Positions 6,360-13,031 of a stretch of DNA of 13,031 bases are shown in pieces. The stretch is from the UHGV virus genome UHGV-0124295. One strand, given 5' to 3'. The translations under genes and the position numbers were made by a program. Position 1 is the first letter of the stretch. Every line of letters starts with the position of its first letter. The notes under the pieces were generated by a model, which saw only the letters and a list, made by a program, of their open reading frames with translations, was not told the origin of the DNA and made no database searches. This DNA is from a virus.

Positions 6360-7010
6360 ATGAAAACTCAATTGATGGGAGAGCGCATTCGCGCTCGGAG
6401 AAAAGAACTCAAGATCAGACAGGCCGCACTTGGAAAGATGGTCGGCGTGTCTAATGTTGCCATATCTCAGTGGGAACGCTCTGAGACAGAGCCAAATGGA
6501 GAGAATCTTCTCGCCCTGGCTAATGCGTTGAAGTGTTCCCCTGACTATCTGATGAAAGGAGAGGAAAGTCTTTCAAACATTGCCTATCACAGTAGGCATG
6601 ATCCAAGAGGGTCATACCCTCTGATTAGCTGGGTGAGCGCAGGATGCTGGATGGAAGCTGTAGAACCATATCATAAGCGTGCAATAGATAACTGGTACGA
6701 TACAACCGTAGACTGTTCAGAAGATTCGTTTTGGTTGGACGTGAAGGGAGACTCAATGACGGCTCCGGCCGGTCTCAGTATCCCTGAAGGAATGATAATA
6801 CTCGTCGATCCTGAAGTAGAGCCGCGTAACGGGAAACTGGTAGTTGCAAAGCTCGAAGGAGAAAACGAGGCAACTTTCAAGAAGTTAGTTATTGATGCAG
6901 GCAGGAAGTTTCTAAAACCACTTAACCCACAATATCCGATGATCGAGATCAACGGAAACTGCAAAATCATCGGCGTAGTTGTCGATGCAAAACTAGCAAA
7001 CCTTCCATAA
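6360..7010 (+). CDS. c2: Prophage repressor, P22 C2 / LexA-like S24 peptidase family
   Basis: 216 aa; N-terminal HTH (VGVSNVAISQWERSE), Ala-Gly autocleavage site (SAG) and C-terminal Ser/Lys peptidase fold (GDSM ... VVAKL). Resembles the P22 c2 repressor from memory. Confidence 0.88.
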   Translation: MKTQLMGERIRARRKELKIRQAALGKMVGVSNVAISQWERSETEPNGENLLALANALKCSPDYLMKGEESLSNIAYHSRHDPRGSYPLISWVSAGCWMEAVEPYHKRAIDNWYDTTVDCSEDSFWLDVKGDSMTAPAGLSIPEGMIILVDPEVEPRNGKLVVAKLEGENEATFKKLVIDAGRKFLKPLNPQYPMIEINGNCKIIGVVVDAKLANLP

Positions 7011-9383: not shown

Positions 9384-9554
9384 ATGTCACTTGCAACCAC
9401 AGTGAAGGAGAGCAAGTTACAGAGACGCATGTACACGCAGAAAGCTCTCTGGTATCGCCATAATGGTGACCGCGAAGGAATGCGGGTATGCCTTAATTTG
9501 TCCAGAGTCGAAGTATTAAACCAGCGTTATTTCCTTGGGCCATGTCCATTCTGA
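9384..9554 (+). CDS. Hypothetical small protein (56 aa)
   Basis: ATG 9384 with RBS AAGGAG (9372-9377); MSLATTVKESKLQRRMYTQKALWYRHNGDREGMRVCLNLSRVEVLNQRYFLGPCPF. Ends 8 nt before the Rad52-like gene. An alternative overlapping ORF 9305..9463 exists in another frame. Confidence 0.35.
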   Translation: MSLATTVKESKLQRRMYTQKALWYRHNGDREGMRVCLNLSRVEVLNQRYFLGPCPF

Positions 9555-9562
9555 GGTGAATT

Positions 9563-10270
9563 ATGGATTTGAATAAATTCGATGAGCCATTCGGCCCTGA
9601 AGATATCGAATGGCGAATACAGCAAAGCGGTAAAACACGCGATGGCAAGGTGTGGGCTATGGTGCTGGCTTATGTAACGAACCGGGCAATCATGAAACGC
9701 CTGGACGATGTTTGCGGCAAAGCAGGATGGCGCAATGAATACCGCGATATTCCCAACAACGGCGGCGTTGAATGCGGCATATCAATAAAGATTGATTCCG
9801 AATGGGTAACCAAATGGGATGCTGCTGAAAACACGCAGGTAGAAGCCGTCAAAGGTGGTCGTTCCGGTGCAATGAAGCGCGCTGCCGTTCAGTGGGGAAT
9901 CGGTCGGTATCTGTATAACCTTGAGGAAGGTTTCGCACAAACATCTCTCGATAAAAAGCAGGGGTGGCACAGGGCAAAACTGAAGGATGGAACAGGATTT
10001 TACTGGCTCCCTCCATCGCTGCCGGGATGGGCAATCCCAGCATCAGATAACAAACCATCACCAGAAAATACCAACCAGAAATCTCCATCGGTTGACTGCG
10101 AACAAATCCTGAAAGACTTCAGCGATTATGCATCAACAGAAACTGACAAGAAAAAACTCATCGAGCGTTATCAGCGTGACTGGCAATTAATGGCTGGCAA
10201 CGAGGAGGCGCAGGCTAAATGCGTTCAGGTAATGAACATCAGAGTTAACGAACTAAAACAGGCGGCATAA
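9563..10270 (+). CDS. Rad52/Rad22-family single-strand annealing protein (Sak/Erf-position recombinase)
   Basis: 235 aa; motifs AYVTNRAIMKRLDDVCGKAGW and GAMKRAAVQWGIGRYLYNL typical of the Rad52 N-terminal annealing domain. RBS GAGGTG. Sits immediately upstream of ssb. Confidence 0.7.
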   Translation: MDLNKFDEPFGPEDIEWRIQQSGKTRDGKVWAMVLAYVTNRAIMKRLDDVCGKAGWRNEYRDIPNNGGVECGISIKIDSEWVTKWDAAENTQVEAVKGGRSGAMKRAAVQWGIGRYLYNLEEGFAQTSLDKKQGWHRAKLKDGTGFYWLPPSLPGWAIPASDNKPSPENTNQKSPSVDCEQILKDFSDYASTETDKKKLIERYQRDWQLMAGNEEAQAKCVQVMNIRVNELKQAA

Positions 10271-10777
10271 ATGGCAAGCAGAGGCGTAAATAAGGTGATT
10301 ATCCTTGGTCGGGTAGGACAAGACCCGGAAGTTCGATACTCACCATCAGGTACAGCGTTCGCTAACCTGACAATAGCCACGTCAGAACAATGGCGAGATA
10401 AAAATACTGGCGAGCAAAAGGAATTGACTGAATGGCATCGTGTTGCTGTATCCGGGAAACTGGCTGAGGTCGTGGGGCAGTATGTGAAAAAAGGTGATCA
10501 GATTTATTTCGAGGGAATGCTGAGAACCAGAAAGTGGAAAGACCAGTCAGGGCAAGACCGTTACACAACCGAGGTTCATGTCGGAATTAATGGCGTGATG
10601 CAAATGCTTGGCGGCATTGGCGACAGCAAACAACAAGCAGCCAGCAGGCAATCACAGAAGCCACAGCAGCAATCATCACCAGCACAACACAACGAACCTC
10701 CGATGGATTTTGACGACGATATACCCTTTGCACCAGTAACTCTCCCCTTCCCTCGTCACGCTATTCACGCAATTTAA
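10271..10777 (+). CDS. ssb: Single-stranded DNA-binding protein
   Basis: 168 aa; OB-fold N-terminus [44 protein letters not shown]... and Gln/Pro-rich linker. The acidic tail MDFDDDIPF is present but followed by 15 extra residues. Confidence 0.9.
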
Positions 10778-10790
10778 TCAGGAGAAAATC

Positions 10791-11087
10791 ATGCCAGCGC
10801 CTCTGTATGGTGCGGATGACCCGCGCCGCTGTTCCGGCAATTCCGTATCGGAGGTGCTGGATAAATTCAGAAAAAACTACGACCGGATAATGTCGCTACC
10901 GCAGGAAACGAAAGAGGAAAAGGAATTTCGCCACTGTATATGGCTTGCAGAGAAAGAAGAACGCGAGCGAATTTACCAGACATCAATCCGACCATTCCGT
11001 AAAGCCACATATACCCACTTCCCTGAATATATCGACCCGCGCCTGCGTAATTACCGCTCACGCTATGGCGCTATCAGTAATGACTGA
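10791..11087 (+). CDS. Hypothetical protein (98 aa)
   Basis: RBS GGAGA 5 nt before ATG 10791; same strand and tightly packed with neighbours. Confidence 0.5.
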
Positions 11088-11097
11088 GGAATTTACC

Positions 11098-11265
11098 ATG
11101 AGAGGACTTGCATACAATCCCGGAATTCTTCCGGCAGAAATGATTATTCGTCAACGCGTAAAGCCAATGCCATCGAGAGAGGAATTGCTTAAGAGAAATA
11201 GTTTCGGTTCTGTTAATGACAACAAATATCTGAATGCAATGTGGCGCAAAGGAGGCAAGCAGTGA
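11098..11265 (+). CDS. Hypothetical small protein (55 aa)
   Basis: ATG 11098 with RBS GAGGA 7 nt upstream; it is the 3' part of track ORF 10945..11265, whose 5' part overlaps the previous gene and is rejected. Confidence 0.4.
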
Positions 11266-11852
11266 GCAACATCGACAAACAGGCGCAGCGTAAAGCAAAG
11301 GTAATCACAAAGGAATTTGTTGAGGAACACCTTCACTACGATGGGAAGGATTTTTTCTGGAAGAAGCGCGAACCAAGTTCGTTTTCTGACAGCCGCACAT
11401 GCAAGGTTTGGAATACTCGAATTGCAGGGAAGCGGGCCGGAGGAATCAGCGCTCAAGGTTATGTAGAAATTCAAATCAAAGGGAGTCGATATAAGGCTCA
11501 TAGATTAGCGTGGTGTCTTGTTCATGGCGATATACCAACAGACATGCAGGTTGATCACATTAACCACGACCGAACTGATAACCGAATAGAGAATCTGCGC
11601 CTTGTTGATAATCAGGGAAACCAAAAGAACTCTTCGATACGAAAGGACAACATTGGAGGCTGCACAGGTGTTACCTGGAATCCTAGCCATAAAAGATGGA
11701 TTGCCTACATACGCGAAAATGGTAAGCACAAGCACATTGGTAGCTTCATTAAATTCTCTGATGCTGTAAGAGCAAGAGAGGAAGCTCAGGCAAGGCTTGG
11801 ATTCCACATGAATCACGGCGCCGCTGGCATTCGCATCAAAGGAGGTGAGTAA
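11262..11852 (+). CDS. HNH endonuclease with C-terminal AP2-type DNA-binding domain
   Basis: HNH_3-like motif [16 protein letters not shown]...[27 protein letters not shown] and AP2-like [40 protein letters not shown]. Probable GTG start at 11262 after RBS GGAGG; the track start is GTG 11241. Confidence 0.78.
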
Positions 11853-12028
11853 TGCGTGTGGCATTTTTCGGCTTGTTACCGTACCCGACTCGTTTTTGGG
11901 CTTCTGCGCTAATTGCAAAGCCACAGGTCCTGATGGCTGACAACATCACCCCAGCACCAAAGCGCCGCCATACCGGTATTGCAGCTGCACGGCGCGCAGT
12001 AAAGAAACGCAGGAGAGCAAAACGATGA
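11852..12028 (+). CDS. Hypothetical small protein (58 aa) with basic C-terminus
   Basis: ATG 11852 overlaps the HNH stop (TAATG) and follows [70 protein letters not shown]. Below the track cutoff. Confidence 0.4.
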   Translation: MRVAFFGLLPYPTRFWASALIAKPQVLMADNITPAPKRRHTGIAAARRAVKKRRRAKR

Positions 12029-12216
12029 AAAACCGTAAAGCAAAGATGCTTATTTCCCGTGTATACAGCCGTTGCTATCCCAGCCAGTGGTTGAGAGTTA
12101 GCAATCGCCGTATGGTGTTGTACTTATATTCTGGAATTGCCAGAGAGGGAATCAAAGATAAGCCCAGCGCAGCGCAAAACCGCTGGAAAAACCACTTGCG
12201 CACTAAAGGAGAGTAA
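12025..12216 (+). CDS. Hypothetical basic protein (63 aa)
   Basis: ATG 12025 overlaps the previous stop (ATGA); RBS AGGAGA upstream. Confidence 0.45.
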   Translation: MKNRKAKMLISRVYSRCYPSQWLRVSNRRMVLYLYSGIAREGIKDKPSAAQNRWKNHLRTKGE

Positions 12217-12217
12217 T

Positions 12218-12436
12218 GTGCCAACATTATTCAGAAAAGAATATCCGCGAAGAAGTCGAATAACAGAACTCCTGTTTATCATTCTGTTTATCGTGTTGAT
12301 GATACCGATAAACCTGCTGTTTCTGGTTTGGATAATCGGAAAAATATTTGAGCCGATTGTTGAATTGTATATCGATATGACATGGGAACCATTCAGGGCG
12401 CTACACAATAAAATTAATCCGTATAAGGAAAGCTGA
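12218..12436 (+). CDS. Hypothetical small membrane protein (72 aa, GTG start)
   Basis: GTG 12218 follows RBS AAAGGAGAG; one strongly hydrophobic segment ITELLFIILFIVLMIPINLLFLVWIIGKIF. The track ORF 12137..12436 starts at an upstream TTG inside the previous gene. Confidence 0.5.
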   Translation: MPTLFRKEYPRRSRITELLFIILFIVLMIPINLLFLVWIIGKIFEPIVELYIDMTWEPFRALHNKINPYKES

Positions 12437-12437
12437 T

Positions 12438-12701
12438 ATGGCAACTTTGACAAAAAAAGAACAGGCATGGTTGAACGAATTACAGGAAGTTCTTGATCGC
12501 TGTCCATCACCGAAAAAAATTGGTTTTTACACCATTGGCGATAAAAGCATTTACCTGTATGACCTGCGCCGCATGGATGAAATCATGGAGGCTCTTGATA
12601 ATCGTTCGTCGATGGATTGGTGTGTTGCTGTCCATGATATGAATGCAGGGTTTGATGAAAAGATTTTGTTCCCCTCATCAGTTGAAAGCACTGCGGGTTA
12701 A
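12438..12701 (+). CDS. Hypothetical protein (87 aa)
   Basis: RBS AAGGAAAG before ATG 12438, 1 nt after the previous stop. Confidence 0.55.
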   Translation: MATLTKKEQAWLNELQEVLDRCPSPKKIGFYTIGDKSIYLYDLRRMDEIMEALDNRSSMDWCVAVHDMNAGFDEKILFPSSVESTAG

Positions 12702-12711
12702 GGAGTAACAC

Positions 12712-13031
12712 ATGACCACTATTACCAAAGAACGTATCGAATTGTTCATTAAATCCCCGCTTGAAAACGGGCTTACCCGTGGCGAACAAATGGAAGTGGC
12801 ACGGATTGCTTTGGCATCACTGGAAGCAGATCCTATTGGTGAAGTTTCAGAGAAGCGATACGGCCTTATTATGGATGGAACGGTAGACCTTGGCGGGAAA
12901 TCAACTTATCGCATCATTAAGGGAGAAAAAGCGATGAAGTTGTTTCCGCTGGGGACGAAGTTTTATACCGCCCCGCCAGCGCCGGTATCTGTGCCCGCTG
13001 CGATGGAAATTGATGATGACTTTGACAGCGC
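12712..13031 (+). CDS. Hypothetical protein, 3'-truncated by the window edge
   Basis: RBS AGGAG 6 nt before ATG 12712; the open frame MTTITKERIELFIKSPLENGLTRGEQMEVARIAL... runs to the end of the window. Confidence 0.5.
   Translation, partial: MTTITKERIELFIKSPLENGLTRGEQMEVARIALASLEADPIGEVSEKRYGLIMDGTVDLGGKSTYRIIKGEKAMKLFPLGTKFYTAPPAPVSVPAAMEIDDDFDS

Follow-up and report, generated by a model that had tools for sequence, protein, structure and literature searches.

We analysed a 13,031-bp stretch of viral DNA (UHGV virus genome UHGV-0124295, hereafter the window), which is one complete metagenome contig (ena:ERZ1309674 NODE_2291) and carries the immunity and early region of a lambdoid phage. 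Its minus strand encodes nin-type genes, a DnaB-type helicase, a replication O-like gene, cII and cro, while the plus strand carries cI (6360-7010) and then the early-left operon. Our subject is the end of that operon, eight close-packed plus-strand open reading frames (ORFs, O1 to O8) that lie 3' of ssb from 10791 to the contig end, and in particular O3, an HNH endonuclease gene that is fused in frame to the ends of a displaced ead/ea22 gene. The features are listed below, beginning with the two genes directly upstream, a single-strand annealing protein (SSAP) gene and ssb; pI is the isoelectric point and aa are amino acids.

9563-10270, plus strand: Rad52/Rad22-type SSAP, from the annotation in 98-99% identical loci and PF04098 on the same contig
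10271-10777, plus strand: ssb, with a mosaic boundary at 10777/10779
10791-11087, plus strand: O1, 98 aa, Abc2 by homology
11098-11265, plus strand: O2, DUF2737 (PF10930, phrog_1117), small basic protein, 55 aa, or 61 aa if the alternative ATG at 11080 is used
11262-11852, plus strand: O3, HNH_3 plus AP2-like endonuclease, chimeric ORF of 196 aa with a GTG start; mobile cassette about 11262-11844
11262-11290, plus strand: ead/Ea22-like 5' end (VSNIDKQAQ...) kept as the O3 N-terminus, from its likeness to Ea22-like gene starts
11818-11852, plus strand: ead/Ea22-like 3' end kept as the O3 C-terminus and stop, from the alignment of Ea22 3' ends
11852-12028, plus strand: O4, 58 aa, very basic (pI 12.0), phrog_13831 at 2.4e-37
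12025-12216, plus strand: O5, 63 aa, basic (pI 11.1), phrog_1380 at 2.5e-34
12218-12436, plus strand: O6, 72 aa with a GTG start, DUF4014 (PF13198, phrog_1832), predicted single-pass membrane protein
12438-12701, plus strand: O7, 87 aa, acidic alpha/beta protein conserved across Enterobacterales
12712 to beyond 13031, plus strand: O8, more than 106 aa, cut by the contig end; the N-terminal 106 aa (12712-13031) of a DUF551-domain protein, phrog_60

An earlier note on this DNA, made from the sequence alone, had described these eight ORFs as tightly coupled, and both coordinates and junctions bear this out. From O1 to O8 the junctions are, in order, +10, -4 (GTGA), -1 (TAATG), -4 (ATGA), +1, +1 and +10 nt, and a Shine-Dalgarno-like sequence stands upstream of all eight starts. 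Every ORF has a Pfam or PHROG family match over nearly its full length. We also compared the frames, and the ratios of nonsynonymous to synonymous substitution (dN/dS, Nei-Gojobori method), with homologous loci from HK75, HK633, VSe13, E. coli prophages and metagenome contigs (cited below by L numbers where needed). Results showed that dN/dS is below 1 throughout (0.03-0.76), with 0.03-0.42 for abc2, 0.06-0.24 for DUF2737, 0.33-0.59 for O4, 0.44-0.76 for O5, 0.30-0.56 for DUF4014 and 0.08-0.25 for O7. The frames are unbroken in most of these loci, with single in-frame stops in DUF2737 (L009, L018, L022) and in O7 (L018). Kept frames, dN/dS below 1 and family profiles together mean that the ORFs are real genes and not chance frames; the loss of reading frames in related phages, which the earlier note had named as evidence that would count against the cluster, is not what we found. 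From gene order, we infer that the cluster is the distal part of an N-antiterminated early-left (pL) operon, presumably expressed as one polycistronic and translationally coupled message. No phage record and no complete E. coli record in the collections searched spans more than 66% of 10271-13031, and the full arrangement was found only on metagenome or draft contigs. An Rfam scan of the entire window gave one sub-threshold chance match, outside the ORF cluster. Three long antisense ORFs on the minus strand (11151-11501, 116 aa; 11505-11924, 139 aa; 12124-12510, 128 aa) overlap O2-O3 and O5-O7 and are presumed to be shadow ORFs.

We then considered what O3 encodes. The protein matches HNH_3 (PF13392; 3.9e-18, 65.3 bits, cut-off 24.8) and phrog_99 (1.7e-63), and a precomputed match to AP2 (PF00847) is present on some of its homologues. 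In an alignment of 55 homologues, D98, H99, N107, N111 and N123 are invariant. The AlphaFold2 model, with a predicted local distance difference test score (pLDDT) of 91, contains an HNH core followed by a three-stranded sheet and a helix (beta3-alpha, residues 137-179), and the best solved structures in Foldseek were I-HmuI and plant or apicomplexan AP2 domains (probability up to 1.0, E 0.02-0.1), with TEM1, AtERF1 and WRI1 at probability 1.0 and E 0.05-0.1. The only PADLOC models matching O3 were those of homing endonucleases. The name HNH-AP2 is therefore reasonable, its AP2 part being assigned by modelled fold and not by the Pfam threshold. The invariant catalytic D-H...N...N columns, together with a model that matches the I-HmuI and AP2 folds, predict a competent nuclease.

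The two ends of O3 resemble another gene. Its start aligns with the starts of Ea22-like genes, at 91-94% nucleotide identity with the one that encodes MSNIDKQALRE in L005; L006 also matches, and another Ea22-like start that aligns with it reads VSKIDYQALRE. By direct alignment, its C-terminal 10 residues are the same as the ends of Ea22-like proteins. The wider HNH-AP2 family typically ends in GFHxNHG plus 1-3 residues, and the extra AAGI..KGE tail is found only in the O3 lineage and a few relatives. Relatives that are 73-78% identical (P0002, P0003) have neither Ea22-type end, while P0001, P0004 and P0006 have other versions of these ends. The structure model is of low confidence only at the borrowed ends (pLDDT 59 for residues 1-10 and 53 for the last 10 residues). 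Apart from these terminal peptides, O3 has neither the central coiled coil of Ea22 (...LALLDERERNQQYIKRRDQENE...) nor an Ea22-type C-terminal domain. O3 is thus not a member of the Ea22 family, its interior being an HNH-AP2 nuclease, and because its first ~9 and last ~11 codons are ead/Ea22 termini, it fills the ea22 slot in frame.

The distribution of the tail points to the same slot. E. coli genomes with a match to the O3 gene number 77, and in 60 of them the match is confined to the last 35-39 nt; among the rows listed, most of these short matches overlap annotated ead/Ea22-like genes, and those that were checked lie at the 3' ends of such genes. The exact 45-nt junction of tail and O4 start occurs on 18 IMG/VR contigs, and the ORF upstream of it is Ea22-like in 17 of them, while in the eighteenth, where the ORF is truncated at its N-terminus, the same Ea22-type tail is present. 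The upstream ORFs include at least four different C-terminal domains, and none of the 18 contigs has the HNH gene. Locus L008, with DUF2737, ead/Ea22 and O4 at the corresponding positions, is an empty-site analogue. Conversely, the HNH-carrying loci have no Ea22-like gene in their gene annotations or gene calls. These alignments indicate an in-frame replacement of the ead/ea22 interior by the HNH-AP2 coding sequence, which inherited the start and the stop of that gene and the element AAAGGAGGTGAGTAATG at its 3' end.

This element is both the Shine-Dalgarno or ribosome-binding site and the overlapping start of O4. In the window (11837-11854) it reads AAA GGA GG(T) GAG TAA TG, so that one run of letters serves as peptide end, as strong Shine-Dalgarno sequence and, by overlap, as the start of the gene that follows. 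As the ea22 tail, stop and ribosome-binding site are kept, the translation of O4 would be undisturbed by the replacement. A K/R-G-E C-terminus is reported for all Ea22 proteins, and its significance has been stated as unknown (PMC7093339). We infer from the overlap that this ending is the footprint of the downstream gene's Shine-Dalgarno sequence and overlapping start, and the motif is probably a footprint of translational coupling and of a recombination boundary. A similar element, CAAAGGAGG...GTGA, ends DUF2737 (11247-11264). The resulting repeat around the HNH gene (CAAAGGAGG...TG, at 11247 and 11837) was considered as a transposon-like target duplication and rejected, as the two copies are two ribosome-binding site and start junctions; otherwise the repeat search returned only short two-copy repeats.

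On the 5' side, O2 is a clear DUF2737 protein (PF10930 at 2e-30, 104.8 bits, cut-off 25), and this family is a near-constant gene directly downstream of abc2. Its 3' end, CAAAGGAGGCAAGCAGTGA, comprises the Shine-Dalgarno sequence and the overlapping start of O3. DUF2737 genes (11241-11265 is the site in the window) end in two versions. In type A (WRKGGKQ and stop, with a GTGA overlap) the next gene is ea22, HNH or others, while in the second version (WRSGKK and stop, with an ATGA overlap) the next gene is HK97 gp37-like. The two ends are a further pair of boundary sequences, and all HNH carriers have the type A end. The gene annotated as an HNH endonuclease after DUF2737 in the Salmonella phage VSe13 was not counted as an HNH occupant, since its sequence lacks an HNH motif and is similar to the HK97 gp37-like gene. 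We also noticed that DUF2737 carries a premature stop in three HNH-carrying backgrounds (L009, L016/L022 and L018, the last by a TGG to TAG change six codons from the end) and is intact in the window; these stops near the cassette may reflect chance or relaxed selection. Literature searches returned no functional work on DUF2737 or DUF4014.

The proposal that the HNH-AP2 gene is a selfish and variably present nuclease was supported by its distribution; the gene is not simply free-standing but an in-frame chimera with ead/Ea22 termini. At least 15 contigs encode exactly this 196-aa protein; they differ in their immunity and replication genes and have RecT+Gp157, Rad52+SSB+Abc2 or Sak4-like ATPase+Abc2 backgrounds. 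DUF2737 lies directly 5' of the HNH gene in nearly all carriers, with an intervening ORF in L002 and L009. The 583-nt HNH body is 99.8-100% identical in the carriers, against 75-99% for abc2, 91-99% for DUF2737, 93-100% for O4 and 72-100% for O5. In the mismatch map of 11262-11844, 11 other carriers show 0-2 differences, and mismatches restart 3-25 nt upstream and 0-13 nt downstream of the cassette. Two alternative 3' junctions are found, KGGE and stop followed by O4, and KGE and stop followed by other genes. The HNH gene is rare, being present in 17 of 5426 complete E. coli genomes, on one IMG/VR contig and in no GTDB species representative, and frameshifted or truncated copies occur (L001, L011, P0005). 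Sporadic presence, near-zero divergence within flanks that differ by up to 25%, sharp borders and decay are what is classically seen with a selfish endonuclease cassette, here one that has been spreading recently.

Unrelated HNH genes also lie at other junctions of the same operon (L005 1521-1988; L001 5511-5876; L008 5000-5365; L009 2558-3004; L011 4463-4828), namely in the gap between SSAP and ssb, after DUF4014, or immediately 5' of the O3-type HNH; the window has none after DUF4014. The early-left operon thus looks like a hot spot for HNH cassettes.

We propose that a selfish HNH-AP2 homing-type cassette replaced the body of ead/ea22 while keeping the start with the first ~9 codons, the last ~11 codons, the stop and the embedded ribosome-binding site. 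Such a cassette would most likely move between diverged lambdoid phages by recombination in short conserved gene ends, which would be the DUF2737 end plus the ea22 start on one side and the ea22 tail on the other, and a double-strand break made by the nuclease in ea22-bearing genomes may drive the exchange. Taken as a whole, the reading of the region as the tail of a lambdoid early-left operon, with Abc2, a selfish HNH cassette in the ea22 slot and a post-ea22 gene set, seems to us likely. In a more specific version, the nuclease would be directed at ead/ea22 in competing lambdoid phages, and the replacement would take place through conserved ends of ~27-35 nt, arms of the length used by SSAP-mediated recombination; we put this forward tentatively, as a possibility with the odds rather against it.

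Several points weigh against the proposal as a whole. Ordinary homologous recombination at the conserved boundaries could move the putative homing cassette without any nuclease action, and an efficient homing element with a common target would be expected in more than 0.3% of E. coli genomes, though the low frequency does fit a cycle of gain, decay and loss. For some lambdoid phages, a case has been made that HNH genes beside a recombination module truly belong to it (PMC12315714). The AP2 match of O3 is sub-threshold (3.4e-4, 21.3 bits against a gathering score of 33.3), and its fold matches include none at E<=0.001. Finally, pL transcription and translational coupling are deduced from gene order and junctions; a promoter and terminator scan of 9500-13031 gave fewer sites than shuffled sequences and none above the shuffled expectation, and we therefore make no claim of internal transcription signals.

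The first of these points can be developed into an explanation of its own, in which the cassette spread by ordinary or SSAP-mediated recombination at gene-end boundary sequences with the nuclease uninvolved, the HNH gene being one of many cargos of the ead/ea22 slot and possibly domesticated for competition or exclusion between phages. Ea22-like genes are indeed extreme mosaics with constant termini and at least four different C-terminal domains, the breakpoints lie exactly in conserved gene ends, and the boundary-sequence model of lambdoid mosaicism is described as established (Clark et al. 2001, as reported in PMC3029335). Boundary recombination alone leaves unexplained why the HNH cargo shows near-zero divergence when neighbouring cargos have diverged, and the catalytic residues of O3 are intact. 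We regard this explanation as possible but doubtful.

The gene that opens the cluster bears on another alternative. O1 matches PF11043 (Abc2/Anti-RecBCD_p2) over residues 1-98 of 98 (4.3e-62, 206.8 bits, cut-off 25), phrog_656 (7.8e-57) and, over its full length at ~90% identity, the P22 Abc2 chain PDB 8B1T_A (1.4e-56), and it keeps the IRPF motif including Pro68, the docking site for PpiB. By homology, O1 is Abc2, the P22-type anti-RecBCD protein 2. Structures of Abc2 in complex with RecBCD are available (PDB 8B1T/8B1U), in which a proline of Abc2 docks in the host PpiB, and P22 Abc2 turns RecBCD from a threat into a supplier of single-stranded DNA for the phage recombinase (PMC9836394). By analogy with P22, O1 would bind RecC, block the anti-phage nuclease action of RecBCD and redirect the enzyme to feed the phage annealing protein, its partners here being the Rad52-type SSAP and the phage SSB. 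As Abc2, O1 is the last gene of the recombination module and not an "ea" gene, and it completes a Rad52-SSAP + SSB + Abc2 module of a type catalogued for lambdoid phages (PMC12315714). The description of most ORFs of the cluster as having no recognisable function therefore fails for O1, a structurally characterised RecBCD hijacker that groups with the upstream SSAP and ssb. The order SSAP-ssb-abc2-DUF2737 is found at 96-99% identity in HK75, mEp235, mEpX2 and many prophages, and abc1 was not seen between ssb and abc2 in the window. At the mosaic boundary 10777/10779, loci L001, L002, L008 and L019 have an extra 549-nt gene for a DnaQ/Rv2179c-like 3'-5' exonuclease in the gap between ssb and abc2, and L019 has an additional 159-aa ORF; the window has neither.

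Since O3 lies two genes 3' of Abc2 in the same operon, and since close-packed HNH genes such as that of ES18 can be legitimate members of Rec modules (PMC12315714), O3 could be a working nuclease of the recombination module, kept for the benefit of the phage because it makes the breaks or ends used by SSAP, SSB and Abc2. We find this improbable. The identical gene stands beside three unrelated SSAP types and does not co-diverge with any of them, it is absent from the great majority of similar modules, it occupies the ea22 slot and not a Rec-module slot, decayed copies occur, and modules of the Abc2 type are thought to use RecBCD itself as their nuclease (PMC9836394). This indifference to the SSAP type and the rarity of the gene make the explanation fit poorly.

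Downstream of the cassette, O4 to O7 and the DUF551 start are a conserved post-ea22 accessory set of many lambdoid prophages, and they are real genes. The frame of O4 is kept in seven loci, one of them with a 21-nt in-frame deletion. Its homologue is usually left unannotated by the NCBI Prokaryotic Genome Annotation Pipeline (L008, L009, L014, L015), which leaves an apparent gap of 150-350 nt after ead/Ea22, and it is called by metagenome gene callers and in one plasmid record (WP_001261533.1, L013). That O4 might be non-coding, as this omission would imply, was rejected on its frame in seven loci, its dN/dS of 0.33-0.59 and its PHROG family. Within O4, a perfect 10-bp palindrome, ATACCGGTAT (11970-11979), is conserved in all seven aligned loci and may represent a site bound by protein or no more than conservation of the coding sequence. 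The family of O5 (MKNRKAK...) is present as two tandem diverged paralogues in L004 (4009-4355), L009 (3783-4138) and L012 (2325-2695), and as one copy in the window. O6 matches DUF4014 (PF13198) at 1.5e-22 (80.2 bits, cut-off 23.2) and has one hydrophobic segment, residues 19-37, with a mean Kyte-Doolittle value of 3.1, in agreement with the single hydrophobic segment that the earlier note had seen in the 72-aa protein; the two very basic ORFs it had mentioned are likewise recovered as O4 and O5. O7 gave a confident structure model, and a structure search with that model returned no informative fold relatives. O8 is 100% identical over its 106 aa in the window to a 261-aa PF04448 protein in L019 and also matches DUF551 N-termini in L005, L006 and L010.

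The set is widespread and mosaic. Homologues of O4-O7 occur in 1653 of 5426 E. coli genomes, including lambdoid prophages of O157:H7, and the members are present or absent independently of each other between loci. E. coli plasmid records of ~49-101 kb also carry homologues of O4-O7 and of ead/Ea22, at 398 places in all, and one such record (L013, 49 kb) has phage holin and lysis genes, which suggests a phage-plasmid.

These properties invite the idea that O4-O7 form a dedicated anti-defence or host-takeover operon, with for example two basic nucleic-acid binders and a membrane protein. The genes are conserved, co-located, translationally coupled, small and part of an early operon, they are common and reach plasmids, and O7 is under strong purifying selection across genera. 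On the other side, O4-O7 show no similarity to defence, anti-defence or toxin proteins or to characterised families in Pfam, PHROG, NCBIfam, PADLOC or the PDB, none of which is an anti-defence library; the same searches gave no NCBIfam or PADLOC-DB defence-family match for O2 and O4-O8, and PDB sequence searches with O2, O5, O6 and O7 had no matches. O7 is without informative fold relatives, and the set is itself mosaic. We therefore consider a dedicated operon of this kind rather unlikely. The host-takeover or anti-defence role suggested for the cluster is documented for Abc2 only, and for O2 and O4-O8, which have no PADLOC, Pfam-function, PDB or fold match, it is a conjecture.

In conclusion, Abc2, DUF2737, DUF4014, HNH-AP2 endonucleases, Ea22 and lambdoid mosaicism are all known, and the region is typical and of a largely known kind. 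The new element is modest, namely the precise anatomy of the HNH cassette as an in-frame ea22 replacement bounded by ea22 termini. The importance is accordingly limited, and the main effect is a correction of the annotation, as the cluster begins with a well-understood RecBCD hijacker. Nonetheless, the locus shows cleanly, in a natural case, how a lambdoid mosaic comes about, as a nuclease cassette is exchanged at boundary sequences of gene ends with such precision that it takes over the start, the stop and the downstream ribosome-binding site of the displaced gene. If the nuclease does drive the exchange, homing endonucleases would be linked to the loss of the pro-lysogenic ea22, which would be relevant to the biology of Shiga toxin (Stx) phages because the same slot and the post-ea22 genes are found in O157:H7 prophages. 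If it moreover targets ea22, a selfish element would be actively deleting a pro-lysogenic gene from phage populations, with boundary sequences serving as built-in homing arms. It would be reasonable to include the small conserved genes in functional screens, especially the 87-aa O7, which has a confident model but no fold relative.

Finally, we compared the locus with the known systems that it resembles. O1 shares with P22 Abc2 ~90% identity over the full length, the IRPF proline and the position directly 3' of a recombination module that contains an SSAP; P22 Abc2 works with Erf and Abc1, whereas the partners of O1 would be a Rad52-type SSAP and SSB. With the ead/Ea22 proteins (lambda Ea22 and P22 Ead), products of a pro-lysogenic gene of the exo-xis region, O3 shares the N-terminal peptide, the K/R-G-E-type C-terminus (PMC7093339) and the genomic slot, with DUF2737 or the exo-xis genes on its 5' side and O4 on its 3' side, but those proteins have a coiled-coil core and Ea22 C-terminal domains, and O3 has neither.

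The order of an HNH nuclease followed by a C-terminal AP2 domain is that of a recognised class of homing endonucleases (Magnani et al. 2004, as reported in PMC10448857). O3 agrees with this class in the order of an N-terminal HNH_3 nuclease and a C-terminal domain of predicted AP2-like fold, in the invariant catalytic residues and the I-HmuI-like fold, as well as in its sporadic distribution, near-identical copies within diverged flanks and decayed copies. It differs in being neither borne by an intron or intein nor cleanly free-standing between genes, as it is fused in frame to the ends of the displaced gene, whose start, stop and downstream-coupling signals it uses; its role as a homing endonuclease is a predicted one. 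As in the boundary-sequence recombination of Clark et al., the breakpoints lie in short conserved gene-end sequences and a nuclease gene marks the boundary of exchange. Unlike in that model, the conserved boundaries of the cassette are within the coding termini of the displaced gene itself, and it is for this reason that the product of the exchange is a chimeric ORF.

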